DNA from: Candidatus Scalindua sp.
Lineage (GTDB): Bacteria > Planctomycetota > Brocadiia > Brocadiales > Scalinduaceae
Direction of reading: 5' to 3'
Assembly (NCBI GenBank): GCA_031316235.1
Contig: JALDRA010000001.1
Span: 2,670,001-2,702,000, forward strand
DNA length: 32,000 nucleotides
Each line of letters starts with the position of its first letter. Position 1 is the stretch's first letter. Shown here in pieces: positions 3,239 through 21,995 of this stretch. The notes below the pieces were generated by a model that was not told the DNA's origin, made no database searches, and saw only the letters and a list, made by a program, of their open reading frames with translations. Made by a program: the position numbers and the translations under genes.

Positions 3239-3329
3239 AGGCTTCTCAGAATTTTTTATTATTTGTGTTGTTCAAAAAGTCGTATTTCATGAAGGCGTTA
3301 TCTGTTGTGAAACATCTGGAGAAGGTTCT

Positions 3330-4424
3330 GTGCTATACAGTTGGGTTTATTATCTACACAACCATTTTTCTGAACTTGAAATAATAAAGTACATATCATT
3401 CCGGGCCGGTCTTGCCGCCTTTACCGCTTTTTTAATCAGCGTGTTTATCGGGGGCAAGATAATAAAAATGCTGAAAAAGTATAAGGTCTCAGAAGATACG
3501 ACAAAAACAGATTCTGTGAGATTAAGAGAACTGCATAGTGACAAAAAAAACATCCCTACAATGGGAGGTGTTATTATGCTGATATCGATAATCGGCTCTA
3601 CTCTGCTCTGGTGTGACCTGGTAAATATTTATATAAGAATTGTATTATTTGCAACCGTGTGGCTTGGTGCTGTGGGTTTTGTTGATGACTATATTAAATT
3701 GAAGCACAAAGATGCTTCCGGCATGTCAGGCAGATCTAAACTTATCTTTCAATGCGGTCTGGGACTTATTCTCGGTATTGTATTGTATTTTCATTTCAAG
3801 AATATTGATGACGGCACAAAACTGATCATACCATTTTTCAAAGGGCTTAAGCCCGAACTGGGGGCATTTTATGTGTTAATGGTGATGTTCTTTGTAGTAG
3901 GGATGTCAAATGCTGTCAACATTACCGATGGTCTTGACGGGCTGGCTATTGGATGCGTTGTAATTGCAGGACTTGTGATTACCCTGGTGGCGTATGTTGT
4001 AGGGAGGGTTGACTTCAGTAGTTATCTGCAGGTGCCTTATATCCCCGGGTGCGGAGAATTAAGTATCCTGTGTGCAGCGTTGGTTGGTGCCGGATTGGGT
4101 TTTATGTGGTTTAATTGTTTTCCGGCACAAGCCTTTATGGGGGATACGGGCTCACTTCCATTGGGTGGCATACTGGGTATAGTTGCCATAATTGTAAAAC
4201 TTGAGCTCTTTGTTTTTTTTATTTACAGTATTTTTATTGTAGAAGCACTTTCAGTGGTATTGCAGGTAGGGATATACAAGATCTGGAAAAAAAGGGTCTT
4301 TCTCTGTGCACCGTTACACCATCATTTTCAGTTTAAGGGATGGCCGGAAACAAAGATCACGGCAAGATTTTTTATTATTGCCGCAATAATGGCACTCTTG
4401 AGCTTGATTACTATAAAATTATGA
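3330..4424 (+). CDS. mraY: Phospho-N-acetylmuramoyl-pentapeptide transferase
   Basis: Polytopic membrane protein with MraY motifs NAVNITDGLDGLA, GDTGSLPLGG and APLHHHF. GTG start at 3330 preceded by GGAGAAGG. Confidence 0.92.
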   Translation: MLYSWVYYLHNHFSELEIIKYISFRAGLAAFTAFLISVFIGGKIIKMLKKYKVSEDTTKTDSVRLRELHSDKKNIPTMGGVIMLISIIGSTLLWCDLVNIYIRIVLFATVWLGAVGFVDDYIKLKHKDASGMSGRSKLIFQCGLGLILGIVLYFHFKNIDDGTKLIIPFFKGLKPELGAFYVLMVMFFVVGMSNAVNITDGLDGLAIGCVVIAGLVITLVAYVVGRVDFSSYLQVPYIPGCGELSILCAALVGAGLGFMWFNCFPAQAFMGDTGSLPLGGILGIVAIIVKLELFVFFIYSIFIVEALSVVLQVGIYKIWKKRVFLCAPLHHHFQFKGWPETKITARFFIIAAIMALLSLITIKL

Positions 4425-5563
4425 AAGCCATCAAAAGTCAAGCAGTTGTACCATATACAGAAAATCGTGCCCTGGAACCGGTTAACGTTATCTTATACCT
4501 TATTACGACGCTGCTTGTAGTGGGGATAATTATGGTGTACAGTACGAGTTCGGCAAAACTTATAAAAGGCGGTGATGCCCAGAATCTCGTCTTCATGAAG
4601 CATGTTTTGTGGGTAATCTTTGCTTTTCTGGGTATGTTAATCATGATGAGGGTAGATTATCATTTCTGGCAGAACTATAGCACCGTAATCCTCGGAATTT
4701 CCGTAGTCTGCCTTGTCGCCGTATTAATTCCAGGAGTGGGATCAGTTATTAATGGTGCCCGCAGGTGGATACGATTTGGTTCCTATTTTGGTGTCCAGCC
4801 ATCTGAGTTTGTAAAACTTGCAATGATCATATTTGTTTCAAGTTATATAGCAAAAAACCAGGGCAGTATGTCGGATTTTGTTAAAGGTTTTGTTCTCCCT
4901 CTTGTGATAATTGGCGGTGTCTCACTGCTTGTCCTTGTTGAACCGGATTTCGGTACAACGTTATTCATCATGTTTGTCTCACTGATACTTGTGATTGTCG
5001 GAGGAACGAGAATTGTCTACTTTGTTTTCACCTTGATGGCCGCGGTCCCATTTATTTATGAAAGTATATATAAAATTAAACCTTACCAGATGAAAAGAAT
5101 CCTGGTTTTTCTTGATCCCTGGAGAGACCCCCAGGGAGATGGCTATCAAATAGTACAATCATGGATTACCCTTGGATCAGGCGGGATCTCTGGTTTGGGG
5201 TTAGGCGAAGGGAGACAGAAATTGTTTTTTTTACCTGTCAGTAGCAGTGATTTTATCTTCTCTATAATAGGCGAGGAGTTTGGATTCATCGGCACTTCAA
5301 GCATTATCATCATGTTTGGCTTGTTGGCATGGTATGGGATCAGGGTCAGTAAGCAGGCTCCGGATATGTTTGGTTCTCTGCTTGCTTTAGGAATAACCCT
5401 CACGATCGCTTTACAATCAGCCATGAATATTGCTGTTGTTACCGGGGCAATACCGACAACGGGTATTCCTCTTCCATTCATCAGTACCGGGGGTTCATCA
5501 CTGTTTTTATCGTTATTGGGGATGGGTATGCTCTTAAGTATTGCAAAACAATCAAGAACTTAG
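4421..5563 (+). CDS. ftsW: SEDS-family peptidoglycan glycosyltransferase / lipid II flippase FtsW (FtsW/RodA/SpoVE)
   Basis: Multi-TM protein with EPDFGT, WITLGSGGISGLGLGEG, SDFIFSIIGEEFGF and PLPFISTGGSS. ATG 4421 overlaps the mraY stop in an ATGA junction. The track ORF starts at 4340 inside mraY. Confidence 0.88.
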   Translation: MKAIKSQAVVPYTENRALEPVNVILYLITTLLVVGIIMVYSTSSAKLIKGGDAQNLVFMKHVLWVIFAFLGMLIMMRVDYHFWQNYSTVILGISVVCLVAVLIPGVGSVINGARRWIRFGSYFGVQPSEFVKLAMIIFVSSYIAKNQGSMSDFVKGFVLPLVIIGGVSLLVLVEPDFGTTLFIMFVSLILVIVGGTRIVYFVFTLMAAVPFIYESIYKIKPYQMKRILVFLDPWRDPQGDGYQIVQSWITLGSGGISGLGLGEGRQKLFFLPVSSSDFIFSIIGEEFGFIGTSSIIIMFGLLAWYGIRVSKQAPDMFGSLLALGITLTIALQSAMNIAVVTGAIPTTGIPLPFISTGGSSLFLSLLGMGMLLSIAKQSRT

Positions 5564-5576
5564 CAATAACCTTCCA

Positions 5577-6782
5577 ATGAGAACAGGGGAAAAAGAGTCT
5601 TCTTTTTTGAAAGTGATCTTCGCCGGTGGCGGTACCGGCGGTCATTTAATGGCGGGGATAAGTATTGCGGAGGAAATATCCTCTCAGTTTCCTGATGCAG
5701 GTATTGTATTTTTTTGTACTGATTTGAAGAGAGAGGCCGGATACCTGGAAAAGAGCGGATACCGGATAAAACAGATCAGAGCACGGAAACTCACATCTTT
5801 GCGTCACGTACCAGCATTCCTCTTCGTTTCTACCATTGGGCTTGTCTCTTCCTTCATCCATATTGCAGCGATTCGGCCTGATATGGTTGTCGGCCTGGGA
5901 GGGTATGGATCGGTCTTACCGGTTGTTGCTGCATATTTCTGCAGAGTTCCAATTGTCCTGATAGAACAGAATAGTATTCCCGGCAGAGCTAATCGAATGC
6001 TGGCAGGAGGAGTGGATGCGATTTTATGTCATTGGGAGAAAACGGCAAAGTTGTTTAAAAAGTCAAAATCAATACATGTTACCGGTATTCCCGTACGGAA
6101 AGATATCATAGGAAATACATCTGAGAAGGAGTACGAAAAATTCGGTTTTGTCAGTCAGGGAAAGATTTTACTTATTATGGGCGGCAGTCAGGGGGCACAA
6201 ACAATAAACAGGGTTTTAGTGCAGTGCCTGCCAGAACTAAAAAAAATGATTCCGGAGTTGCAAATTATTCATTTAACAGGTAAGCTTGGATTCTGTGAGG
6301 TGAAAAGGGTGTATGACAAAATGGGGATTCGGGCCTTTGTGTCGGAGTACTTTGAAGACATCGGCCTCATCTACAGGATAACTGACCTGATAATAAGCCG
6401 TTCCGGGGCAAATACTGTTGCGGAAATTGCTGAAGTTGGAATTCCCGCAATCCTGATACCATATCCTTATGCTACTGATAACCATCAGTATTGGAATGCA
6501 CACGAACTTTCCCGGAACGGGGGTGCCATAATCATAGAACAAAAAGAGCTGAATCCGGAGATGATAACAGAAATAATAGTTCGTTTACTTGCAGACAGGG
6601 AAAGATTGCATGAGATGAAAGCTCTTAGTAAAAAACAGAGCAAGCCTTTTGCTGCTGAAAGGGTTGTTGAGGGAATTCTCCAGACACTGGCGGGAAAGAA
6701 ACAGGGGGCAGGTCTAATTTTATCAGAGCGAAACAGAAAACGAAAAGAAAATGAATCTTACAACACAAGACACTTATCATAA
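5577..6782 (+). CDS. murG: UDP-N-acetylglucosamine--N-acetylmuramyl-(pentapeptide)-PP-undecaprenol GlcNAc transferase
   Basis: N-terminal GGGTGGH, GGSQGA and SRSGANTVAE motifs of glycosyltransferase family 28. Start is uncertain: ATG 5577, or TTG 5541 overlapping ftsW. Basic C-terminal tail of about 30 aa. Confidence 0.88.
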   Translation: MRTGEKESSFLKVIFAGGGTGGHLMAGISIAEEISSQFPDAGIVFFCTDLKREAGYLEKSGYRIKQIRARKLTSLRHVPAFLFVSTIGLVSSFIHIAAIRPDMVVGLGGYGSVLPVVAAYFCRVPIVLIEQNSIPGRANRMLAGGVDAILCHWEKTAKLFKKSKSIHVTGIPVRKDIIGNTSEKEYEKFGFVSQGKILLIMGGSQGAQTINRVLVQCLPELKKMIPELQIIHLTGKLGFCEVKRVYDKMGIRAFVSEYFEDIGLIYRITDLIISRSGANTVAEIAEVGIPAILIPYPYATDNHQYWNAHELSRNGGAIIIEQKELNPEMITEIIVRLLADRERLHEMKALSKKQSKPFAAERVVEGILQTLAGKKQGAGLILSERNRKRKENESYNTRHLS

Positions 6783-8349
6783 ATCACAGAATCAGCATTA
6801 CCAAAACCTTCTTCATTATGATCGTGAACAGGAGAAAAATGTCTATTTTATAGGAATCGGTGGTGTGGGTATGAGTGCAATTGCGAAGATATTGATGGAT
6901 GAGGGGTGCATCGTGTCTGGTTCGGATCCGGAATGTACACCCATTACGCATAACCTGAGGGAGAAGGGTGCAAAGATTTATACGAAACAGGATGGTAACA
7001 GCCTGGATCACTATACAAATCTGGTTATAGCTTCTGCGGCGATAAATGAAAGTAATCCGGACCTTGTCAAGGCAAGGAAATTAGGGCTGAAGGTGGTCAA
7101 ATACTCTGAATTTCTGGGCTCATTAATGAAGGATAGACGGGGCATTGCGGTGAGCGGTACACATGGTAAGACTACCACAAGCGCCATGATATCAACAATT
7201 CTCAAGAAGTCTGGTCATGAACCTACATTTGTAGTGGGGGGTGATATTGTAGAGATAGGAGGTGGTTCCTGTGTTGGAAAGGGAACTCTTTTTGTTGCGG
7301 AGGCGTGTGAATATGATAAGACATTCCTGAACCTGTCTCCACAAATTGGAGTTATTACGAACATTGATGAAGACCACCTGGATTACTATAAAGACATAAG
7401 GGGTATAACAGATGCCTTTTCGGAATTTGCCTCCCTGATACCTGCAGATGGAATACTGGTTGTAGATGGCGAGGATGAGAATATAAAGACGGCTATTAAA
7501 AATGCAGGATGCCGGATCTCCCGGTACTCAGTAGTTTCCGCGCGGGTTAATACACAAATGGCTGATGTGCCGGACTCTTTTTCGTTTTGTACGATACCAG
7601 GCGTCATCATGGACGAATCAGCTGGTGGCATGCAGGGTAAATCAGAGTCGAAATGGCTGGCAGTTGTGTACAGTTTTGATAAGACTGAGAGTGTTTTCAG
7701 CGTATATAATGAGAGTGGGTTTTTTGGTAATTTTTCTCTTCAGGTACCCGGGATACATAATGTAAAAAATGCACTTGCAGCAATTACTGTCTGCAGCCAC
7801 ATTGGTTTACAGGCCGAAGTTATCCAGAAGGCATTCCAATCCTTCAAGGGTGTCAGCCGGCGATTTGAAATCATCAGCAATGAAGACGGTATTACCATAA
7901 TTGATGATTATGCCCACCATCCTACCGAAATAAGAACGACATTAGAAACGGTTAGAGCTGTCTATCCTTCACAACAGGTTACGTGTGTGTTTCAACCTCA
8001 CCAGTATAACCGTACAAGATTTTTCTTAAAAGAGTTTGCTGCGTCACTCAGCCTTGCCGATCGGGTAATCCTGACCGATATTTATGCAGCAAGAGATTCC
8101 GGTATTGATAAGGCCTCTGTCAGTTCATTGGATCTTGTACGTGAATTGCTCGAAATGGGTGGTAACGTTCAGTATATGAAAAGCATCTCAGAGATTGTAA
8201 ATGAATTACCCATTAACGCAAAAACAGGGGATATTATTTTGACGATGGGAGCGGGGGATATCTGGAAAGCCGCTTATGGTCTGAGGGATTTTTTCAAAAA
8301 GAAACATGATAACCCGAACGAAGGCAGACGACAGCTTATTTCAACGTGA
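6751..8349 (+). CDS. murC: UDP-N-acetylmuramate--L-alanine ligase
   Basis: FIGIGGVGMS N-terminal fold motif, P-loop GTHGKTTTSAM, DDYAHHPTE. Overlaps the murG end by 32 nt. Carries an internal extra segment (see findings). Confidence 0.9.
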   Translation: MNLTTQDTYHKSQNQHYQNLLHYDREQEKNVYFIGIGGVGMSAIAKILMDEGCIVSGSDPECTPITHNLREKGAKIYTKQDGNSLDHYTNLVIASAAINESNPDLVKARKLGLKVVKYSEFLGSLMKDRRGIAVSGTHGKTTTSAMISTILKKSGHEPTFVVGGDIVEIGGGSCVGKGTLFVAEACEYDKTFLNLSPQIGVITNIDEDHLDYYKDIRGITDAFSEFASLIPADGILVVDGEDENIKTAIKNAGCRISRYSVVSARVNTQMADVPDSFSFCTIPGVIMDESAGGMQGKSESKWLAVVYSFDKTESVFSVYNESGFFGNFSLQVPGIHNVKNALAAITVCSHIGLQAEVIQKAFQSFKGVSRRFEIISNEDGITIIDDYAHHPTEIRTTLETVRAVYPSQQVTCVFQPHQYNRTRFFLKEFAASLSLADRVILTDIYAARDSGIDKASVSSLDLVRELLEMGGNVQYMKSISEIVNELPINAKTGDIILTMGAGDIWKAAYGLRDFFKKKHDNPNEGRRQLIST

Positions 8350-9187
8350 TGTTTCTCTGCGAAAATATACTTCTTTCAGAACGGGAGGAGCTGCTGAGTT
8401 TTTTGTAGAGCCGGAGAGTGTATCAGAGCTGATGAAGGTGCTCCGGTTTTGCAAGAGAGAGAAAAAAAAGATTTTTATACTCGGTAACGGAAGTAACATT
8501 CTTGTTCATGATGACGGTGTTGAAGGTGTGGTCATTTATCTGGGAGGGAATTGCTTTAAACAGTTACATAGATACGGGTTGCGTGTTTGTTCCGGAGCGG
8601 GAGTGAGTCTTGTCGGACTGCTGAGGAAAGCAGCCGGGTGGGGTCTGGGCGGTTTAAGCAGCCTGGCTGGGATTCCGGGGAGTGTTGGCGGGGCTGTAGT
8701 AATGAATGCCGGTGGGAAATACGGCAGTATCAGCGAAAATATCAACTCGGTAACAACGGTCACCTTTCATGGCGAAATAAAAAAGCTGGAACGTAAAGAG
8801 ATCGGCTTTCAATACCGTGGATGCGGCCTCCGGGAAGAGATAGTTATTGAGGTGGAATTTCTGCTGAGAGAATCCGAAAAAGAGAGAACCTTTGAAGAAA
8901 TGAACACTATTTATAAAGAGAAGAGAGAAAGTCAACCTCTGGGAACGTTAAATGCCGGTTGTATTTTTAAAAACCCTCAAGGCTTCAAGGCTGCTGAACT
9001 TATTGATAAAGCGGGTCTGAAAGGGGTAAAAGTTGGCGGCGCCATAGTCTCACCAAAACATGCAAATTTTATTATTAATAGTGGAGATGCTACCAGTAAT
9101 GATATATTGGAGCTCATACAAGTGATAAGAAATAGTGTCAGAAAAAAATATAATGTTATATTAGAGACCGAACTGCATATTTGGTAA
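8306..9187 (+). CDS. murB: UDP-N-acetylenolpyruvoylglucosamine reductase
   Basis: FAD-binding PCMH-type motifs YTSFRTGGAAEFF, ILGNGSN and AGIPGSVGGAVVMNAGG, then C-terminal AGCIFKNP. Overlaps the murC end by 44 nt. Confidence 0.9.
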   Translation: MITRTKADDSLFQRDVSLRKYTSFRTGGAAEFFVEPESVSELMKVLRFCKREKKKIFILGNGSNILVHDDGVEGVVIYLGGNCFKQLHRYGLRVCSGAGVSLVGLLRKAAGWGLGGLSSLAGIPGSVGGAVVMNAGGKYGSISENINSVTTVTFHGEIKKLERKEIGFQYRGCGLREEIVIEVEFLLRESEKERTFEEMNTIYKEKRESQPLGTLNAGCIFKNPQGFKAAELIDKAGLKGVKVGGAIVSPKHANFIINSGDATSNDILELIQVIRNSVRKKYNVILETELHIW

Positions 9188-9217
9188 AAAAGGTTCTTTA
9201 CAAAGGTGAGAGCAGGA

Positions 9218-10192
9218 ATGGCTGACAAGAAAATAATAGCGGTATTAATGGGAGGTGTATCTCCAGAAAGGGAGATTTCTCTCCTCTCTGGTCAGGCAGT
9301 CTCGCATGCCCTCAGGAAGGCCAATCACAAGGTCGTTGAGATAGTCGTAAACGACTGTTTAGTTAACGAAATTGATGATCATGAGGTAGATGTGGCATTC
9401 ATTGCTCTTCACGGTTGTTTTGGCGAGGATGGGGGAATACAGGAAGTTTTAGAATCAAAGCAGATTCCCTACACGGGCTCGGGAGTTGGTGCGAGCAGGC
9501 TTGCCATAGACAAGGTGAAATCAAAGGATGTCTTTAAAAGGGAGAATATTCCAACTCCCGATTATTGTGCTGTATCAATGAAGCTCAGTATGTCAGAAAT
9601 TATCGAGAGTGTTGAAAAAGTAACATTGCCTGTTGTTGTCAAGCCGACAGGAGCCGGTTCAAGTGTCGGCATATCCATGATAGGGACATATGATGAATTG
9701 TGTGAGGGAGTGGCTTATTCTCGTTTATATGGCGGGCAGGTTCTTGTTGAAAAATTTATTGAGGGTCGGGAATTGACGGTTGGTATACTCAACGATCTGC
9801 CTTTACCGGTAATTGAAATAAAAACTGCATCACTCTTTTATGACTATGATGCGAAATATAGAGATAAGAGAACTCAGTACATTATCTTGAAATCAGCCGA
9901 TAGAGCAGGTGAGAGATCGTTGCCTCACTCTACTTATACCAGGGTGCAGGAGCTGGCAATGGAGGCGCACAAAAGCCTTGGCTGCCGAGATTTTTCCCGT
10001 GTAGACCTTATCCTGGGCAAGGGGGGAGAAATATACGTTCTTGAGGTGAATACAATCCCTGGATTTACCGAGAGAAGCCTGTTCCCGAAAGCAGCCGGTG
10101 CACAAAATATTGATTTTATCGAGTTGTGTAATACGATTGTGAGAAATGCATTAAAACCCGCCATGAAAGACCTCTCGGCTGTGTGTCCGTAA
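9218..10192 (+). CDS. ddl: D-alanine--D-alanine ligase
   Basis: ATP-grasp enzyme with IAVLMGGVSPEREISLLSG, ALHGCFGEDGGIQ and EVNTIPGFT. ATG 9218 is preferred over the in-frame GTG 9206 used by the track. Confidence 0.9.
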   Translation: MADKKIIAVLMGGVSPEREISLLSGQAVSHALRKANHKVVEIVVNDCLVNEIDDHEVDVAFIALHGCFGEDGGIQEVLESKQIPYTGSGVGASRLAIDKVKSKDVFKRENIPTPDYCAVSMKLSMSEIIESVEKVTLPVVVKPTGAGSSVGISMIGTYDELCEGVAYSRLYGGQVLVEKFIEGRELTVGILNDLPLPVIEIKTASLFYDYDAKYRDKRTQYIILKSADRAGERSLPHSTYTRVQELAMEAHKSLGCRDFSRVDLILGKGGEIYVLEVNTIPGFTERSLFPKAAGAQNIDFIELCNTIVRNALKPAMKDLSAVCP

Positions 10193-10288
10193 TTCATAAA
10201 GATACCTCGGGGCAGGAAATGAATCATATCGAAAGGCAGCAGTCACGGAAAACCAATTTTATCGAAACAAATAAGAAGCCCTGCAATA

Positions 10289-11215
10289 ATGAAAAGTTTA
10301 CTTAAGCATCATTACGCTACTGTAATAGATGGTATAAAGATACGTTTGGCACCATTGCAACCTTTCCGTGCGAAGATTCAGAAAACAGTCTCTCTCTGTT
10401 TGTTGAGACTTGTAATTGTGATGGTAATGGTTATGATTGTTCTGTGGTTGGTGAAATCAACATGGTTCTATTTCACAAATCAATGGATTTTTTTTGTGAG
10501 TCCTGCAACCTTTACGTTTAATTCACCAAACTGGGTGACTGACAGCTTGATTGAGAAGATGAGAAATATTGAAGGGTTGGAAACCAGGTACAATATATTT
10601 GAAAAGGATCTGACAAAAAAGATTGGAGAAGTGTATGGGGAATCACCGCTCATCTCCCAGGTTTTTTCTATTAAAAGAAGATTGCCAAATACGATAGAGA
10701 TAAGACTGGAGCTGCGCAGACCGATCGCTGTCGTTAAAAGTAAATCCAGGGAATATTTAATTGATAGAGACGGCGTAAGGCTTCTTGATAATCTCTATAA
10801 GTATCCTGAAAAGGAAGGGCGACCAATTTATATAAGGGACAACAGGCGGTTGCGAGTTCCGGAATACGGGGAAGAATGGGAAATGAATTCTGTCAGGGTA
10901 GGGTTAAATCTTTTGAACTATCTGAGACACAATAAGATAGATACACTTTTAAAGATTGCAACCATTGATGTGTCTCATGTTGTTGAGAAAATAAGCAACA
11001 GGGGGCGGAGCAATATCATCTTATGGACAGAAAAAGGAACTATGATAAAATGGGGAAGCCCTCCATCATCCAGGCAATTAATGGAACTTTCAAATTACGA
11101 GAAGCTGCAGAACTTACTCAGTGTTGCAAATGAAGAGGGTACCGATCTGTCAAATCTTGAGTATGTAGACGTGAGATGGAAAACTCCGGTTGGCAAAAGG
11201 ATCGATATTCAATAA
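10289..11215 (+). CDS. ftsQ: Cell-division protein FtsQ-like (N-terminal cytoplasmic tail, one TM helix, POTRA domain)
   Basis: Hydrophobic segment LCLLRLVIVMVMVMIVLWLV, followed by a POTRA-like region (ISQVFSIKRRLPNTIEIRLELRRPIAVVKS..YLIDRDGV). Canonical position after ddl. Confidence 0.75.
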   Translation: MKSLLKHHYATVIDGIKIRLAPLQPFRAKIQKTVSLCLLRLVIVMVMVMIVLWLVKSTWFYFTNQWIFFVSPATFTFNSPNWVTDSLIEKMRNIEGLETRYNIFEKDLTKKIGEVYGESPLISQVFSIKRRLPNTIEIRLELRRPIAVVKSKSREYLIDRDGVRLLDNLYKYPEKEGRPIYIRDNRRLRVPEYGEEWEMNSVRVGLNLLNYLRHNKIDTLLKIATIDVSHVVEKISNRGRSNIILWTEKGTMIKWGSPPSSRQLMELSNYEKLQNLLSVANEEGTDLSNLEYVDVRWKTPVGKRIDIQ

Positions 11216-11500
11216 GCGCCATTTCTGTTGTATCCGCAAATTTTACTGCCTCTTTTTCACATCTTCTGACCTCACGGAGTTCTTTACCGCTTAATCCCTG
11301 TAAAAAGCCATCGATCGTTCCCGGGCACCACTTGTCTACTGTTTTCCGATGAGGTGTAGCACATTTAGTATGGGAGAGCAAAAAAAAAATTCAGGGGCCA
11401 TTATGACGTAACTTATGGAATTAAAAATCTTTGCGATCATAAATGTTGTGTTTAAATGGAGGAAGAGTACAATATTTTGTATATTTGACGATAAAAATAC

Positions 11501-11528
11501 TTGACATTCTGTAGGTAATTTGTATAGT
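11501..11528 (+). promoter_or_regulatory. Sigma70-like promoter candidate (TTGACA-16 nt-TATAGT)
   Basis: TTGACA at 11501-11506 and TATAGT at 11523-11528, in a 470-nt AT-rich spacer. Would give a leader of about 150 nt before ATG 11690. Confidence 0.45.
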
Positions 11529-11689
11529 ACTGCCTGTTATGCCTTACTTCTTTAGTCTCATTTTCGGTATATCGTTTATCTCGATTAAGTATTCTAGGAA
11601 AGGAGGTGTGATAGGGGGCTTTTATTAATCTTTTTACCTGTTTAAAGAATATATTTGTCGGTGCTATTTTATTTGAAAGGGAGGTTTTG

Positions 11690-12157
11690 ATGGTAGCAGT
11701 ATCAACTTTAAGGGAAAAAACAGATGTATGTGACGCAGTAGAGAGAAGTGTTTCGATTTTTATAGAGGCGGTGGAACTGTCTTCTGAACTGGAAATAATA
11801 GGTACCTCATTTCCGGAAAATGCGGATGGCAGCCGGGGAGAGGAAGTCTTTGTGATGAGGGATTATACAAAGGCTGAAGGTGTTGATGGTGCGTATGTTG
11901 AGGTGTCGATCGCTGAAGTTGTGGAAAAGGTTACCGATTTTGACAGGGCACAGGAACTTTTGAGGGTTATCAGTAATGATAGATCTTCGATTGTTCTTAA
12001 TGGGATTACAAGAATTGTAGGGTACTATTCAAGAGTAAATAACTGGAATAAGTCAAAGGTAGGGGAATTGAGAGATAGATCAAGCGGAAGTTACGGTCTT
12101 ACGAGAGAAAAACCTTGCTTTCAGGAAGAACGGTTAAAAATGATAGACTCTTTGTGA
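11690..12157 (+). CDS. Stand-alone NrdD-C-terminus-like (glycyl-radical-type) protein, 155 aa
   Basis: C-terminal ITRIVGYYSRVNNWNKSKVGELRDR matches the pattern I know from class III RNR tails (R-[IV]-x-G-Y ... [WF]-N-x-[GS]-K-x-x-E-x-x-[DR]-R). The preceding GAYVEVSIAE...LLRVISNDRSSIVLN resembles the last NrdD barrel strands. The Cys4 Zn-ribbon that normally sits between them is absent. SD AAGGGAGG at 11677-11684 lies 5 nt before the ATG, and a terminator follows the stop. Confidence 0.6.
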   Translation: MVAVSTLREKTDVCDAVERSVSIFIEAVELSSELEIIGTSFPENADGSRGEEVFVMRDYTKAEGVDGAYVEVSIAEVVEKVTDFDRAQELLRVISNDRSSIVLNGITRIVGYYSRVNNWNKSKVGELRDRSSGSYGLTREKPCFQEERLKMIDSL

Positions 12158-12220
12158 CGTGAAGGGTCGGGGGTTGTTTAATACGTGAGAGGGGACGCTC
12201 TCTTATGCCAATAGTCGGGA

Positions 12221-12255
12221 AAGGCTTATAAGGTAAATCCTTATAGGCCTTTTTT
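12221..12255 (+). terminator. Rho-independent terminator after the NrdD-tail-like gene
   Basis: 13-bp stem (AAGGCTTATAAGG / CCTTATAGGCCTT, one G-U pair), 5-nt loop TAAAT, then a run of six T (12250-12255). Confidence 0.75.
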
Positions 12256-12441
12256 GTTGATCATTTACTCTCTCTTCATTGATGTGCTGTTTTTTTATCG
12301 GGAGATTACTGGAGGAAGGGTTTTTACCTGTTGCGGAAGCAATTATACCAGACAAAGCAGGAAACTATACCTTGACTATAAAGTATAACTTTGTTACGAT
12401 CGACAGTTCGGCTGCTCTCTACAATGTTTTTGTTTACCATA

Positions 12442-12461
12442 GCAGTTTTGAGCAAAACTGC
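12442..12461. promoter_or_regulatory. Perfect 8+8 palindrome GCAGTTTT-GAGC-AAAACTGC (possible operator)
   Basis: Read directly. Centred about 47 nt upstream of ATG 12499. A TTGACT-17 nt-TACGAT promoter-like pair lies about 50 nt further upstream. Confidence 0.4.
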
Positions 12462-12498
12462 ATTATAAGTTACTACAATACTAGGGGAAAAGGGCAAA

Positions 12499-14394
12499 AT
12501 GTTAACTCTTGGGATAGATATAGGTTCATTGTCAACAGATGCTGTTTTATTGAATGATAAAAAAGAAATTGTATCGTATGAAGTAATTGCTACAGGTGCC
12601 AGCAGTAAGAAGGCATGTGATAAGATATACAATCAAATCTTGAAGGTGACAAATCTGGATGCCAAGGATATTGATTATGTAGTTGCAACTGGATACGGGA
12701 GAATCAAAGTTCCCTTTGCGGATGAGGTTGTGACTGAAATTACCTGCCATGCAAGAGGGGCAAATTACTGTTTTCCAAGCGCGAGAACGGTCATAGACAT
12801 CGGAGGGCAGGATAGTAAGGCTATTAAACTTGATGCGAAAGGTAATGTACTTGATTTTTCCATGAATGATAAATGCGCAGCTGGGACCGGAAGGTTTTTG
12901 GAAGTCATGGCCAGGACGTTGGAGATAGACCTGGATGATATGGGAGAGCTCTCACTTAAAGGAACCGACAGTGTCTCTATCAGCAGCCTGTGCACTGTTT
13001 TTGCTGAATCTGAAGTTGTCTCTTTAATAGGCGCTGATCATAAAACGGAAAACATATGCAAGGGGCTGCATGTTTCCATAGCCAAAAGAGTCTCTGCGCA
13101 AGCGAAAAGAGTTGGTTTGGAAGAAGATGTGATCATGACAGGAGGTGTTGCTAAAAACATAGGAGTCGTACGTGAGCTGGAGAAAAAACTTTCCTGTTCT
13201 ATCAAAATACCTGACGAACCACAGATAGCCGGTGCCTTGGGAGCGGCACTCATAGCTTTGGAGAATGCCCTTTCCCGAAAAAAAGCAGACAAGGTTGTTG
13301 AAAAGGAAAAAGTTTCAATTGCAGATGTGAAGCTTGATGATGATGAGAGGCCTAAAATCGGTTATTTCTGCACCTATACGCCAGTCGAAATAATCAGGGC
13401 AGCGGGGTTCCATCCAGTCAGGATAAAGGGTGAAGAGGGGGACAATTCCTCAAATGACGAATTGCTTTGCAACAATATCTGTTCATATATAAAGACGGTT
13501 GCGGACAGAAAGGTGTCCGGAACCCTGGATCAACTTGAAGGGGTGGTATTTACCAACTCCTGCGACGGTATGCGTAGACTGTACGATGCTTGGGTGAGAA
13601 TAGACAATGGCAGTAAGTTCAACTATATTCTGGATATACCTAAAAACAGTGATGACGCTTCAGTGCTCTATTTTGCGGATTTAATAAAGACATTTAAAGA
13701 GCGGCTTGAAAGTTTTTATAAACTGAAAATAGATATTGAGGACATTAATAAGAGTATTTCCCTGTACAATGAGGTGAGAGACAAGGTAGCGTTATTTCTT
13801 CAAAAACAATGGGAGGGTTACGTCGGATACTCTGGTTATGAAATTTACAGCTTGTTAAAGAAGGGCATAAATGCAGTGCCTGAAAGATTTAATGATTACG
13901 TGGGTTCTCTGACCTCCCTCATGAAACAGATAGGGGATGTTCCCGAGAATAAATCTCAGCCAAAACTCTTGATATGGGGAAGTATATTAGAAAATGAAGA
14001 TATAATAAAGATAATTGAGGATGCAGGTGCCCGGGTTGTTTTAGATGATTTGTGTACGGGAAGCAGGTTTTTTGATAAAAAAGTCGAGATAACGGGTAAC
14101 CCCTACCAATCGATATCGGAGAGGTATTTGAGGAAATCACCATGTTCCAGGATGGTTAACGTTTTTGAGAGAATTAGAAATACCATCTCTCTCATAGAAA
14201 AAAGAGCGATCCATGGTGCAGTTTATCACACCCTGAAATTTTGTGATCACACGCTATATGATTATCCCTTGGTAAAGCAGGAGTTCACAAAGAACAATAT
14301 CCCTCTTCTTCATATAAACTGTGATAATAGTTCGAAAAGTGAAGGTCAAGTCAAGACCAGGATAGAAGCGTTTATTGAACAGCTTACTACCTGA
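12499..14394 (+). CDS. Fusion protein: HgdC/BcrAD-BadFG-type ATPase activator domain (aa 1-255) plus 2-hydroxyacyl-CoA dehydratase / benzoyl-CoA reductase BcrBC-family (HGD-D) domain (aa ~285-631)
   Basis: N-terminus: GIDIGSLSTD, ATGYGR, VIDIGGQDSKAI, NDKCAAGTGRFLE, CTVFAESEV, TGGVAKN, GALGAA. The two conserved Cys fall at positions 126 and 165, matching the cluster-bridging Cys spacing of HgdC. C-terminus: KIGYFCTYTPVEIIRAAGFHPVRI, FTNSCDGMRR, DDLCTGSRF, HTLKFCDH and a ...KTRIEAFIEQL ending typical of HGD-D proteins. Confidence 0.85.
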   Translation: MLTLGIDIGSLSTDAVLLNDKKEIVSYEVIATGASSKKACDKIYNQILKVTNLDAKDIDYVVATGYGRIKVPFADEVVTEITCHARGANYCFPSARTVIDIGGQDSKAIKLDAKGNVLDFSMNDKCAAGTGRFLEVMARTLEIDLDDMGELSLKGTDSVSISSLCTVFAESEVVSLIGADHKTENICKGLHVSIAKRVSAQAKRVGLEEDVIMTGGVAKNIGVVRELEKKLSCSIKIPDEPQIAGALGAALIALENALSRKKADKVVEKEKVSIADVKLDDDERPKIGYFCTYTPVEIIRAAGFHPVRIKGEEGDNSSNDELLCNNICSYIKTVADRKVSGTLDQLEGVVFTNSCDGMRRLYDAWVRIDNGSKFNYILDIPKNSDDASVLYFADLIKTFKERLESFYKLKIDIEDINKSISLYNEVRDKVALFLQKQWEGYVGYSGYEIYSLLKKGINAVPERFNDYVGSLTSLMKQIGDVPENKSQPKLLIWGSILENEDIIKIIEDAGARVVLDDLCTGSRFFDKKVEITGNPYQSISERYLRKSPCSRMVNVFERIRNTISLIEKRAIHGAVYHTLKFCDHTLYDYPLVKQEFTKNNIPLLHINCDNSSKSEGQVKTRIEAFIEQLTT

Positions 14395-14584
14395 TCAGAG
14401 AATGCTTCGCGTACTTTGCGGCCGAGCAAAGGGTACGGTCCTGCAAGGTGAGACCAGCAATCCTCCTGGGTGCAGTGTATCCAGCCGTTTCGATGTTTTG
14501 CTCTGTTGGCTTCACTCCCCTGATTCCTCAATTCCAGAAACTTGAAACATGACAGTATTTTATTAATGACACAATAACAAAGCT

Positions 14585-15862
14585 ATGCTGAGTATAAAGA
14601 AATCAAAGGACAATTTAACTCGAAAACTCGCTCCCTTTTTTTTAAAAGAGCTCCTGAGAATTCTCACTATTTATTCGAAGATAACCCTCAAGGGGCTTGA
14701 TAATAACCACATCGATGCCTTTAAATACCTGTCTAAATATGTAATTGAACACCATTTTCATGCATACAAATACGGTTCTATCTGGACAACCCTCTTTGTC
14801 CCCTCGGAAATTCTTTTTGCTATGAAATTGCCCAACTTTTCATTGGAGATAGCAGCAGCTCTGTGCGCAAGGTATGGAAAAAGTGCGCAGGGGTTTGCAG
14901 AAGCAGATCTGTTTGCGATTCCGACTGACGTCTGTTCATTTCATAGGGCTGGAATAGGTCACGCCTTTACAGGGTTTTACCCTCAACCAAAGTTCCTTGT
15001 CGGGACAACTACTATCTGTGACAGTAACTTGAAAACAATTAAGATCTGTGAATCTGAAACAGGAAAAGAGAGCCTTATTATAGACGTTCCCTATGAAATG
15101 AGTGATTACTCTGTCAAATATCTGGCAGATCAATTAAGAAATCTGACTAAATGTTTAGAAAAAGTTTCCGGGAAAACGATGGAGAAAGATTCTCTCAGAA
15201 GGGCGATTGATCTATCCAATCAGGCGAGGGAAAAAATGATAGAAATAAATCGGGTGAGAGAGGATCCTTTATCTCCCCTCATGGGACAGGACTCCCTTGG
15301 ATTAATGCTGCCAAGCCACCTTTTAATTGGTTCAACGTATGCGGTAGATTTCTATTCAAAACTGCTGGAAGAGCTGAAGGAGAAGATCGCAGCTAAAAAA
15401 AGAGAAGGTGTGAAGGAAGAAGAGAAGATTAAGATTCTCTGGCTTGAACTCAAGCCCTATTTCTGTTCAGATATCTTTGATAAGATTGAAAGTGCACGAA
15501 ATGTTAAAATCGTCTTCGAGGAGATAAATCATGTGTACTGGGAGAAATTAGATCCTGATAAACCTTATGAAAGCATTGCCCGCAAGTTGATTTCAAATCA
15601 CAACAATGGGCCGTTAGAAAGAAGATTGGATGTGATAAAGATGTTATCGAAAAATTATCATATAGATGGTATAATTGCTTTTTCCACATGGGGTTGTAGA
15701 AGAAACAATGCCGCAATACCTACCATAAAAAAGGAGATGAACAGGGAGGGGTATCCACTCTTAAATCTTGATGGAGACTGTGTTGACGACAGTAATTATA
15801 TGTCTGGGCAGATTGCAACAAGGATTGAAGGTTTTCTTGAAATGCTGGGAGTCAGAAAATGA
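14585..15862 (+). CDS. 2-hydroxyacyl-CoA dehydratase-family (HGD-D, HgdA/BcrC-like) subunit
   Basis: IWTTLFVPSEILFAM, TDVCSFHRAG, TTTICDSNLK, IIAFSTWGCRRNN, LLNLDGDCVD and an ...ATRIEGFLEML ending. Same strand as the fusion gene, 190 nt downstream. No obvious SD before ATG 14585. Confidence 0.8.
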   Translation: MLSIKKSKDNLTRKLAPFFLKELLRILTIYSKITLKGLDNNHIDAFKYLSKYVIEHHFHAYKYGSIWTTLFVPSEILFAMKLPNFSLEIAAALCARYGKSAQGFAEADLFAIPTDVCSFHRAGIGHAFTGFYPQPKFLVGTTTICDSNLKTIKICESETGKESLIIDVPYEMSDYSVKYLADQLRNLTKCLEKVSGKTMEKDSLRRAIDLSNQAREKMIEINRVREDPLSPLMGQDSLGLMLPSHLLIGSTYAVDFYSKLLEELKEKIAAKKREGVKEEEKIKILWLELKPYFCSDIFDKIESARNVKIVFEEINHVYWEKLDPDKPYESIARKLISNHNNGPLERRLDVIKMLSKNYHIDGIIAFSTWGCRRNNAAIPTIKKEMNREGYPLLNLDGDCVDDSNYMSGQIATRIEGFLEMLGVRK

Positions 15863-15989
15863 ACGGAAAAAGCAGGAAATTGACTACCTGGAGGCTTATA
15901 GGTTATACCTTCTGCATGAGGCCCGTTTCTTCATAATTCTTCTTCATGATCGTCTTCCCCGTGTGATAAGGGCCCTTTTTAGGTATCGG

Positions 15990-16610
15990 TCAGGGATCTT
16001 TAGTCGCTGATTCGATTCCTTGATTTGCGAGTTTATCAGCCTGTCGGTTCTCCTCTCTGGGGATATGCTCTATCTTCCACTTTGGCAGTTTTTTCAGAAG
16101 ACCCTGCGCATCGGTAAAGAGATACATGAGATGAGGATTCTTGACTCGGTATTCCCCTTTTATTTGCTTCACTAAAAGCTCACTGTCTGATTTAAACAGG
16201 GTTTCCTTCGGATTAAATTTTAGTGCCTCTTTAATGCCAAGTATAAAGGCCTTGTATTCTGATACATTATTTGTTGCGAGTCCAATATATTCACAGATCT
16301 CCTTTATCAATTTTGAGTCTTTATCAAATATGGCAACTCCGACACCTGATTTACCAGGATTGCCCCTTGAGGCACCGTCAATATTTATGACAAGAGTTTC
16401 AAATTTCTTTACGGGAGAACGAACAACACCTGGATCAATACGTTTTAAGGCAGGAGCTTCAATCTCTTTTGCATGATTTGCAAGATCATGAAAAAGGGCG
16501 TCGATTCTTTTCTTTGTTACCGTTTTATCCAGCTTTTTCAGCTCTTTAATATTAATGTTTTTATGTATCAACGTTAATAGCTCTTCATCTTTGATGAGGG
16601 TTTTTTTCAA
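15990..16610 (-). CDS. Type 1 RNase H-like protein (RNase HI / RVT_3-type domain) with an N-terminal extension of about 75 aa
   Basis: INIDGASRGNPGKSGVGV, NNVSEYKA, SDSELLVKQI and REENRQADKLAN carry the D-E-D-D catalytic pattern of RNase H. TTG start at 16610 is preceded by AGGAG with a 9-nt spacer. There is no in-frame ATG before the catalytic domain. Confidence 0.75.
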   Translation of the reverse strand: MKKTLIKDEELLTLIHKNINIKELKKLDKTVTKKRIDALFHDLANHAKEIEAPALKRIDPGVVRSPVKKFETLVINIDGASRGNPGKSGVGVAIFDKDSKLIKEICEYIGLATNNVSEYKAFILGIKEALKFNPKETLFKSDSELLVKQIKGEYRVKNPHLMYLFTDAQGLLKKLPKWKIEHIPREENRQADKLANQGIESATKDP

Positions 16611-20933: not shown

Positions 20934-21452
20934 TTATTTTTCTTTATGTTGAGTAACCTTGACCCATATAGGTGTGTCAGGATAAGAGGTTTCCTGGACA
21001 TGTTTAATGATCTCTGTTACGTGTTTGGCAATATCTTCTCTCTGGCAGCTTGAGGGGAAGAACTGCAGGACTTCTACTTCGATTTCTCTTCCTTCTTCCG
21101 CATGAGCCTTATCCGGGATGATGTGTGTTGAATAGTCCAACGGTATAATTCCTCGATACTTACGGATCAGCTCATCATAATCATTGAACATGTTCTGGAG
21201 TAAGATTTTCAAGTCTTCCGTGTCGTGTTTTTCTTGCTCAAATACTTTCTGATGCAATTGTATCAAGTATTCCCGTTCCTTGCCAAAATTGCTGAATTGG
21301 TTTTCGTATGTATAGGAACTGTTTTCCAGCATCGAATCTTTGATTGCGGTCAATTTTTCAAATCTCTCGCTGAACCACAAATCAATGCTGACCCTGATTT
21401 GTTCAAATTTGAATCTGAATTTTTTTAAAATTTCTATAAGTACTTCTCTCAC
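20934..21452 (-). CDS. Hypothetical protein (172 aa, charged/helical, no recognised family)
   Basis: Long ORF 27 nt downstream of the 21480..21995 gene on the same strand. GTG start with a weak SD. Composition looks protein-like. Confidence 0.5.
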   Translation of the reverse strand: MREVLIEILKKFRFKFEQIRVSIDLWFSERFEKLTAIKDSMLENSSYTYENQFSNFGKEREYLIQLHQKVFEQEKHDTEDLKILLQNMFNDYDELIRKYRGIIPLDYSTHIIPDKAHAEEGREIEVEVLQFFPSSCQREDIAKHVTEIIKHVQETSYPDTPIWVKVTQHKEK

Positions 21453-21479: not shown

Positions 21480-21995
21480 TTAATTGTTGTCGCCAAGGTT
21501 GAGAAAGATTTTCCATTTACCATCTTCTTGAACGAGTTCAAATTCTCCGCTCTTTTCGACCATAGGGACATCAGCCTTTCTCAGGTATTGTTTCAGCATA
21601 TGCCTCATCGCCTGCCGGGTAGTTTTCATATCCTTCGGGCCGTAAAATGGTCCAAAGATTTCGGCCAGGACTTCGGGCATATCCGGCGAGGTAATGGTTG
21701 TGTAAGCGGTTGCACTGCCGTCTCCGATTCTCGTTTCAGTTATCTCATAACTGCTTAATGCAGATATTGCCTTTGCTATTTCTTGTTGAAAGGGATCCTC
21801 CAGGCGGTTTTTTCTTATAAACTCCTCTTTGCTGACTATCTTTTTATCTGCATTTGATAGATAGATATACGCTTTTTTGTGGTTGTTTGAGTAAAAAGCC
21901 TTCAAGTACTTAATAAGAACCTTTTCGGGTTGTTCATTGCCGAAACCCAAGAGGGGAACAGCGATGAGGAAAAGCAGTATTTTATATTTTTTCAT
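21480..21995 (-). CDS. Hypothetical secreted protein (signal peptide; possibly NTF2/DUF4878-like)
   Basis: N-terminal MKKYKILLFLIAVPLLGFG is signal-peptide-like. The rest is soluble (KYLKAFYSNNHKKAYIYLSNADKKIVSKEEF...). Family assignment is weak. Confidence 0.6.
   Translation of the reverse strand: MKKYKILLFLIAVPLLGFGNEQPEKVLIKYLKAFYSNNHKKAYIYLSNADKKIVSKEEFIRKNRLEDPFQQEIAKAISALSSYEITETRIGDGSATAYTTITSPDMPEVLAEIFGPFYGPKDMKTTRQAMRHMLKQYLRKADVPMVEKSGEFELVQEDGKWKIFLNLGDNN

Follow-up and report, generated by a model that had tools for sequence, protein, structure and literature searches.

A free-standing NrdD-type glycyl-radical domain protein of Candidatus Scalindua as a candidate detachable part of class III ribonucleotide reductase

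INTRODUCTION

Class III ribonucleotide reductase (RNR) supplies DNA precursors in strict anaerobes, and the glycyl-radical domain of its catalytic subunit, NrdD, lies in the C-terminal tail. The closest described counterparts of such a domain as a separate protein are the Escherichia coli protein GrcA (YfiD) and the phage T4 protein Y06I. According to a review of June 2026, formate lyases are the only enzymes with known spare-part proteins, and their existence for other glycyl-radical enzymes is undetermined (PMC13450708). The split nrdD genes that are known are interrupted by introns or inteins (PMC3653736). The operator recognized by NrdR consists of two 16-bp partially palindromic boxes, 15 to 16 bp apart, in which C4, A6, A8, T9, T11, and G13 are highly conserved (PMC13584703). 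In the ATP-driven reductase BzdNOPQ, six cysteines of BzdN are the ligands of an [8Fe-9S] cluster and three cysteines of BzdO are the ligands of the catalytic [4Fe-4S] cluster (PMC11971306). Here we analyze a stretch of 32,000 nucleotides (the window) from Candidatus Scalindua sp., a marine anammox planctomycete (contig JALDRA010000001.1, positions 2,670,001 to 2,702,000), in which a gene for a 155-amino-acid protein (the small gene and the small protein) stands directly before two genes for HGD-D proteins (the HGD pair). An earlier note on this DNA had proposed that the three genes might form a joint radical system.

We propose, with a probability of about 0.5, that the small gene is NrdR repressed and that its product is a detachable glycyl-radical domain of class III RNR acting in trans, the HGD pair being an unrelated unit.

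RESULTS

The small protein is homologous to the whole glycyl-radical domain of NrdD

The small gene (ORF [open reading frame] 11687/11690-12157) was assigned the ATG at 11690, which lies behind a GGGAGG ribosome-binding site and gives a product of 155 amino acids, 100% identical to NCBI entries MDR4505371.1 and MEZ6156391.1. Its matches in Pfam, NCBIfam, and PDB were to NrdD exclusively, with none to pyruvate formate-lyase (PFL). The match to the Pfam family NRDD (PF13597) covers only residues 104 to 132, at model positions 533 to 560 of 562, and the sequence GITRIVGYYSRVNNWNKSKVGELRDR at residues 105 to 130 comprises the NrdD RxxGY motif together with the NWN..K..EL.DR helix that follows it. 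BLASTP aligned this tail with the C-terminal tail of full-length NrdD at 27/34 identities (79%), and a profile search against PDB sequences gave a weak match (E = 0.043), again to the NrdD tail. A profile built from the family aligned residues 72 to 143 with residues 731 to 802 of Brocadia NrdD at 99.2% probability, a span that makes up the whole NrdD glycyl-radical domain. The barrel with the catalytic cysteine is absent from this 155-residue protein, as is the four-cysteine zinc ribbon: there are two cysteines in total (C14 and C143), none of them in residues 72 to 104, and in the profile alignment a cysteine-free helix stands where NrdD has its four zinc-ribbon cysteines. The small protein is an NrdD tail domain only and not an NrdD.

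It belongs to a large family of free-standing proteins. We found 407 homologs at an E value of ≤1e-3, and a search of 1.84 billion representative proteins returned, at E ≤ 0.001, 501 clusters (50% identity); the 150 best ones contain only short proteins (62 to 207 amino acids). When 47 diverse homologs were aligned, residues R108, V110, G111, K123, E126, and R130 never varied, the motif G(I/V)TRIVGYYSRVxNWNKSKxGELRDR was nearly invariant, and the N-terminal region was conserved too. The AlphaFold2 (AF2) model of the small protein has a pLDDT of 87.9 with a well-ordered N-terminal domain, and it places Gly111 at the tip of a predicted beta-hairpin (residues 106 to 109 and 112 to 115), as in glycyl-radical enzymes. 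Two longer motif-bearing ORFs, in L060 (363 amino acids) and L056 (155 amino acids; L numbers denote the collected loci), were rejected as overextended calls whose true starts lie at the conserved M..EF(Y/F)..VE motif. Separately, an ORF on the metagenome contig Ga0180438_10001424 (L093, 6001-8409; 802 amino acids) carries the family domain at residues 1 to 100 in frame with about 700 further residues that by eye resemble a PolA-type DNA polymerase/exonuclease; it is either a fusion or the result of a missing stop codon.

Might the small protein be something other than a radical donor, either a regulator or decoy that titrates NrdG or caps the NrdD core, or the product of a decaying gene fragment? 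The loss of the zinc-ribbon cysteines and the lack of a nearby activase or core would suit such a role. Against it stand the invariance of the radical glycine and its motif, a conserved and confidently folded N-terminal domain, the hundreds of clusters, the retention of the gene by phages, and the NrdDs described below that end before the glycine loop and would be dead without a partner of this kind. We regard a nondonor role as improbable.

The small gene has a predicted NrdR operator and its own transcription signals

Just upstream of the -35 hexamer of the small gene lie two tandem NrdR boxes that together match 11/12 of the conserved positions, the arrangement expected of a member of the NrdR regulon. 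One such tandem site was present in the window, with 0.10 expected, and the window scan detected none ahead of the HGD genes. When 1.23 Mb of collected loci was scanned for sites with at least 11/12 conserved positions and a 15- to 16-bp linker, 59 tandem sites were obtained, 56 of them upstream of small-family genes or nrdD and 3 elsewhere. Most (42/59) precede an annotated small-family ORF by no more than 450 nt. These 42 include all Scalinduaceae loci but one, along with 14 sites spread over 13 loci in which the small protein has <50% identity to that of the window; 11 of these 13 distant loci have a perfect 12/12 site. A further site precedes the L056 ORF, 30 nt from its corrected start, 12 are upstream of full-length nrdD, and 1 precedes an operon (L069) of nrdR, nrdG, a tail-less nrdD, and a small-family gene. 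By its predicted operator, the small gene is thus a putative member of the RNR (NrdR) regulon.

The small gene also has a promoter-like site of the sigma-70 kind and a strong intrinsic terminator of its own (Table 1), as the earlier note had pointed out, and is predicted to be monocistronic. The terminator was missed by a simple terminator scan, presumably on account of a G-U pair in the stem or its low GC content, and was revealed by direct folding. Rfam returned nothing at gathering score in the whole window, and the region 11200-12520 gave only a chance microRNA match (E = 0.86); the leader of the small gene is therefore without a known riboswitch. A second conserved GGAAAGGAGGTG element was observed in this leader at 11595-11610, some 90 nt ahead of the real ribosome-binding site. 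Scalinduaceae whose leaders are shorter have this element itself as their ribosome-binding site, and it matches no known RNA family.

NrdDs without a tail are paired with members of the small family

Five of the NrdD genes in the collected loci (L068, L069, L140, L252, and L259) stop right after a complete zinc ribbon (...C..C..N(V/I).G(V/I)), without the glycine loop. A small-family gene was present within 5 kb of the tail-less NrdD in all four of these loci with enough flank: immediately downstream in L068 (Elusimicrobiota) and L069, 1.1 kb upstream in L140 (a metagenome), and 4.7 kb upstream in L252. In contrast, for the roughly 34 NrdDs whose tail is in cis, the collected flanks contained no small-family gene. 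The L069 operon (1645-6323) contains, behind its NrdR boxes, nrdR (with Zn_ribbon_NrdR and ATP-cone domains), nrdG, the tail-less nrdD (783 amino acids), and the small tail gene (101 amino acids). It is the cleanest natural example of what, judged from its gene content, would be a two-piece class III RNR.

These counts bear on how the small protein would be used. Should Scalindua have an intact NrdD, the small protein could be a spare part of the GrcA/YfiD type that replaces an oxygen-cleaved tail or supplements the tail. The architecture, dominated by the glycyl-radical domain, parallels that of GrcA. Scalindua lives at oxic-anoxic interfaces and in oxygen-minimum zones, a boundary habitat that suits a repair function, and NrdR control would raise expression as deoxynucleoside triphosphates fall. 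In addition, the NrdDs of the related Brocadiaceae bear tails, and phages carry the tail alone, as T4 carries the GrcA-like Y06I (PMC13450708). The pairing just described points the other way, as small-family genes were found beside all four tail-less NrdDs with enough flank and beside none of the tail-bearing ones, and an intact NrdD was seen together with a small-family gene in no genome of our data. We therefore favor an obligate subunit of a natively tail-less NrdD and consider the spare part rather unlikely, if a serious candidate.

An NrdG-like radical-SAM gene is present in the L068 and L069 operons; in the window, the main ORFs yielded no radical-SAM gene. In four Brocadiales-like loci, a PflA-like radical-SAM protein of 336 to 361 amino acids is encoded two genes from the small gene (L040, 4249-5268; L065, 6385-7395; L066, 5286-6296; L082, 1162-2247) and is a possible alternative activase. 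In the same loci the small gene adjoins a gene for a 152- to 157-amino-acid protein that by eye resembles universal stress proteins.

Phage and viral contigs carry members of the family

Viral contigs from IMG/VR that represent bona fide phages encode small proteins of the Scalindua type that are 54 to 63% identical over the full length (L196, 7773-8201; L236, 2345-2791; L203, 5815-6261). The gene is flanked by a portal gene and a Mu-F-like head gene in L196 and L236; that of L203 comes after an ORF that is weakly Portal_Mu-like (23.3 bits, with a cut-off of 23.9), and nothing was identified downstream. Neither an NrdD core nor HGD genes were found in the flanks of these three. Short free-standing tails occur on about 70 viral contigs. 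The phage-borne small gene looks like a new auxiliary metabolic gene.

Several phage NrdDs are themselves unusual. On L252, which is the same viral contig as L169, a 1,625-amino-acid NrdD ORF (8198-13075) ends in ...CENCNSGDVEGIEYYQ followed by the stop codon, with no glycine loop, and the small-family gene encodes 97 amino acids (3195-3488). The extra length of this NrdD is likely due to inteins. The probably intein-bearing NrdDs of L252 and L259 lie on a phage-like replication module, which in L252 includes a replication initiator, a primase/helicase, and a processivity factor. Other phage NrdDs are split inside the zinc ribbon, namely those of L250 (around 11855 and 18159), L255 (around 12282), and L256 (around 13609), in which the second CxxC and the glycine tail form a separate ORF of 46 to 53 amino acids 0.1 to 6 kb downstream.

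The small gene and the HGD pair are two independent units

The earlier note had suggested a functional link in which the ATP-driven HGD-type reductase would, for example, service or repair the small glycyl-radical protein, and it had named conservation of the gene neighborhood as one check. In favor of such a link, some 25 different contigs of Scalinduaceae, as well as one Anammoxibacter with a small protein of only 46% identity, keep the same-strand order of small gene, fusion gene, and second HGD-D gene, with gaps of 235 to 851 bp. The downstream genes for RNase H, deacetylase, S20, def, and fmt are equally syntenic in Scalinduaceae, so the conservation of the three genes is not specific to them. 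The upstream neighbor of the block varies, being ftsQ only in the closest Scalindua relatives and Lon/CHASE2 or TraB in other Scalinduaceae. The adjacency is also broken within the family, by a 6.2-kb insertion in L024 and by inversion of the fusion-to-deacetylase block in L026, and L029 has no HGD gene within 10 kb.

Outside the family each unit occurs by itself. The HGD pair is retained in Kuenenia, Brocadia, and Loosdrechtia, where 10 kb around it contains no NrdD-tail motif. Conversely, none of about 95 small-gene loci outside Scalinduaceae (genomes, metagenomes, and viral contigs; full-length homologs at <64% identity) has an HGD gene in the collected flanks, and this includes the 63% identical phage copy L203. 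Given the separate promoter and terminator, the sole NrdR site ahead of the small gene, an adjacency that is limited to Scalinduaceae and broken there, and separate occurrence both ways, we conclude that the region consists of two independent units, 11436-12256 and 12499-15862, whose adjacency is inherited synteny within Scalinduaceae and reflects shared ancestry only. The position in what the note had called the ftsA/ftsZ slot is incidental. The neighborhood check thus turned out against the functional link, and we consider a joint system very improbable; the caveat attached to it in the note, that the pairing may be a coincidence of neighborhood, agrees with both the neighborhood and the NrdR evidence. 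The outcome that by the note would speak against the link, genes that are never neighbors in other genomes, held for the roughly 95 outside loci and failed for the Scalinduaceae contigs that keep the order and for the Anammoxibacter.

The HGD pair is a predicted ATP-driven reductase with a fused activator

The first protein of the HGD pair (631 amino acids) combines a BcrAD_BadFG domain (PF01869, 241 bits) with an HGD-D domain (PF06050, 269 bits), and the second (425 amino acids) is an HGD-D protein (246 bits), all above the Pfam cut-offs. The best 120 matches listed for the fusion were 62 to 100% identical, and those that carried a name were all from anammox bacteria or Planctomycetota, with Scalindua, Brocadia, Jettenia, Kuenenia, and Loosdrechtia as the names; identity was 65 to 66% in Kuenenia, Brocadia, and Loosdrechtia, and the Jettenia matches were equally close. 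Conservation of the HGD pair extends to all anammox genera.

The ATPase domain was nearest to HadI (270 bits, the best PDB match), followed by MbdQ (258 bits) and HgdC (226 bits). Its Cys126 (MNDKCAAGT) and Cys165 (SSLCTVFAE) are invariant in seven anammox orthologs and line up in the alignments with HadI and HgdC; on the basis of what is established for HgdC, we take them to be the [4Fe-4S]-bridging ligands of the activator dimer. In the same seven orthologs the fused HGD domain has eight invariant cysteines, six of which (Cys291, 328, 355, 519, 549, and 582) match the spacing of BzdN Cys36, 73, 100, 263, 293, and 327 with an offset of 255. This is consistent with the double-cubane cluster that the earlier note had guessed. 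The invariant Cys117, Cys145, and Cys371 of the 425-amino-acid subunit align with BzdO Cys95, Cys128, and Cys380. The pair thus has predicted cluster ligands of the BzdNO type. The scores for the NCBIfam equivalogs were all far below the cut-off (double_cubane, 199 of 350; BzdQ, 214 of 380; HadC, 160 of 700; BzdN, 111 of 454; BzdO, 62 of 449), and the best NCBIfam match of both HGD domains was double_cubane, with 199 bits for the fusion and 115 bits for the second subunit. We therefore classify the pair as a putative ATP-driven low-potential reductase of the BCR-I/HAD/DCCP superfamily, with its activator fused to an [8Fe-9S]-type subunit, and assign it to no defined enzyme.

Genes of acyl-CoA pathways (CoA-transferase, ligase, and acyl-CoA enzymes) were found neither in the window nor beside the Kuenenia, Brocadia, and Loosdrechtia orthologs. 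About 25 nt before the HGD pair, these three genera encode a hydrophobic protein of 129 to 130 amino acids (L086, 9586-9975; L087, 9584-9973; L088, 9585-9977), which was called a membrane protein from its sequence and a COX1 Pfam match (Loosdrechtia being the only one in which this match was marked weak). This protein is a possible partner of the reductase. A search for a homolog of the Brocadiaceae protein near the Scalindua HGD pair found none. The related double-cubane cluster protein (DCCP) reduces hydrazine in vitro and anammox bacteria make hydrazine; the HGD pair is a candidate low-potential enzyme with a fused activator in these hydrazine-making organisms.

Features and flanks of the region

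The coordinates are collected in Table 1. Our ORF calls reproduced the three adjacent same-strand genes of the earlier note, Pfam bore out its domain assignments (an NrdD tail, an HgdC-type ATPase fused to HGD-D, and a second HGD-D), and the two flanking genes that it had named, ftsQ and an RNase H-like gene, are where it had placed them. Its remark that the canonical partner genes are absent also stands, as the main ORFs of the window yielded neither a CoA-transferase, nor a ligase, nor a radical-SAM gene.

Table 1. Predicted features of the small-gene unit and the HGD unit (window positions)
Feature	Position	Strand	Remarks
NrdR box 1 (ATCATAAATGTTGTGT)	11436..11451	+	5/6 highly conserved positions; kept in all Scalinduaceae small-gene promoters
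NrdR box 2 (GTACAATATTTTGTAT)	11467..11482	+	6/6 conserved positions; 15-bp linker after box 1
Promoter-like site of small gene, TTGACA-16-TATAGT	11501..11528	+	11/12 matches, best in 11100-16100; both hexamers conserved across Scalinduaceae
Free-standing NrdD-type glycyl-radical-domain protein, 155 amino acids	11690..12157	+	Pfam, homolog, alignment, and AF2 evidence
Codon of Gly111, predicted radical glycine in RIVGYY	12020..12022	+	Invariant; aligns with NrdD-tail Gly; hairpin tip
Intrinsic terminator of small gene (hairpin and U-run)	12216..12256	+	-23.6 kcal/mol, z = -4.2; 0/200 shuffles fold as well
Weak promoter-like site before HGD operon, TTGACT-17-TACGAT, TG extended	12372..12400	+	9/12 matches; consensus match only
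HgdC/BzdQ-type ATPase fused to BzdN/HadC-like HGD-D subunit, 631 amino acids	12499..14394	+	Separate unit
BzdO/HadB-like HGD-D subunit, 425 amino acids	14585..15862	+	Separate unit

Upstream on the plus strand lies a dcw cluster (373-11215) comprising murE, murF, mraY, ftsW, murG, murC, murB, ddl, and ftsQ (10289-11215), with no ftsA or ftsZ at its end behind ftsQ. A dcw cluster lacking these two genes is expected in Planctomycetota. The RNase H-like gene lies downstream on the minus strand (15990-16610). A spacer of 340 bp precedes the fusion gene. A 92-amino-acid ORF between the units (12279-12557) was judged spurious from its sequence alone, as it has a TTG start, is unusual in composition, and runs into the beginning of the fusion gene. 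Elsewhere in the window, two neighboring minus-strand ORFs of 172 and 171 amino acids (20934-21452 and 21480-21995) had no Pfam match.

DISCUSSION

In the mechanism that we propose, Gly111, which sits where the hairpin of the conserved RIVGYY has its tip, would acquire a radical through the NrdG activase, and the small protein would dock into an NrdD catalytic core encoded elsewhere and supply the radical in trans. The partner core would most likely end after the zinc ribbon and have no tail of its own, and upon oxygen cleavage at the radical glycine only the 17-kDa piece would need to be replaced. Radical formation, docking, and a tail-less NrdD in Scalindua are the parts of this mechanism that we infer.

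Several points weigh against our proposal. All of the evidence for it is computational. The family-level scores of the small protein are subthreshold, at 22.8 bits for NRDD (cut-off, 26.2) and 17.9 for TIGR02487 (cut-off, 326). A Foldseek search of the AF2 model against PDB gave no match at an E value of ≤0.001; with no solved structural relative, the fold of the free protein offers no clue to function, and docking on NrdD is a prediction. NrdR box 1 has an A in place of the critical C4. All four partners of the tail-less NrdDs belong to a short subfamily (97 to 107 amino acids) and not to the long Scalindua type. Finally, no Scalindua NrdD core or NrdG was found in the one search aimed at it, which used a Brocadiaceae NrdD as the query; none of the best 120 matches was labeled Scalindua, and all were tail-bearing proteins of 749 to 833 amino acids from Brocadia, Jettenia, and other Planctomycetota.

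Taking the family as a whole, we lean slightly toward a broader proposal, namely that it represents a widespread, NrdR-controlled set of detachable glycyl-radical "cartridge" proteins for class III RNR that includes phage auxiliary copies, with a two-piece RNR in many Planctomycetota, Elusimicrobiota, and phages, and that it is the first of its kind outside PFL. The small gene and its family of about 500 clusters provide a concrete candidate for a spare-part or trans-acting radical domain of class III RNR. A separate, replaceable tail, if confirmed, would explain how DNA synthesis continues after oxygen pulses at oxic-anoxic interfaces, for example in Scalindua, and the family would then enlarge the NrdR regulon by a new member and provide a new class of auxiliary gene in phages and the first spare-part or trans radical domain beyond PFL. 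Annotation would also be affected, as family proteins now carry the label "anaerobic ribonucleoside-triphosphate reductase" or the label "hypothetical," and an NrdD without a tail would pass for complete. The family is apparently undescribed. In the literature accessible to us, we found no description of an autonomous radical protein of the NrdD type and nothing relevant on the RNR of Scalindua or other anammox bacteria, on Kuenenia HGD or BCR genes, or on ladderane links.

Comparison with known systems

Among described enzymes, the HGD pair is most like BzdNOPQ and MbdONQP, with which it shares an N-like subunit with six cysteines, an O-like subunit with three, and a BzdQ-like ATPase with both cluster cysteines. 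It differs in having a single type of ATPase, which is fused to the N-like subunit, in the absence of aromatic-CoA genes nearby, in its scores below the cut-offs, and in its conservation in chemolithoautotrophic anammox bacteria. With DCCP/DCCP-R of Carboxydothermus hydrogenoformans and with HadBC plus HadI, it has in common the fold family and ATP-driven electron injection; DCCP is a homodimer, whereas the HGD pair is a heterodimer, and unlike HadC the N-like subunit keeps six cysteines and has no CoA-transferase beside it.

The small protein is alike to the tail of class III NrdD in the 27 shared residues of the glycine loop and the next helix, in the profile alignment that covers the glycyl-radical domain, and in the architecture of the NrdR operator. 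NrdD differs in being about 800 amino acids long, whereas the small protein has neither the ATP-cone, nor the catalytic barrel, nor the four zinc-ribbon cysteines and instead has an extra N-terminal helix and sheet. Split RNRs, such as NrdJa/NrdJb of Pseudomonas aeruginosa and the intron- or intein-interrupted nrdD genes of phages, likewise distribute RNR function over two polypeptides or gene pieces (PMC4520616, PMC3653736). Those pieces, however, either are neighboring parts of a single gene or are rejoined by splicing, whereas the small tail gene is usually unlinked, has gained a domain, a promoter, and an operator for itself, and forms a separate family.

GrcA and Y06I, which serve PFL as autonomous glycyl-radical cofactors, remain the nearest parallel. 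Like them, the small protein is a small autonomous glycyl-radical domain (155 amino acids, domain at residues 72 to 143) that is homologous to the C terminus of a large enzyme and has phage copies, and by analogy it may share their presumed action in trans on the parent enzyme. It differs from GrcA in being homologous to NrdD (RIVGYYSRVNNWNKSK) rather than to PFL (RVSGY), in having a structured and conserved N-terminal domain where that of GrcA is disordered, in its predicted control by NrdR, and in the association of its family with natively tail-less NrdDs. The small protein is GrcA-like in function at most and not a member of the GrcA family, and the association with tail-less NrdDs suggests an obligate subunit rather than a repair part only.

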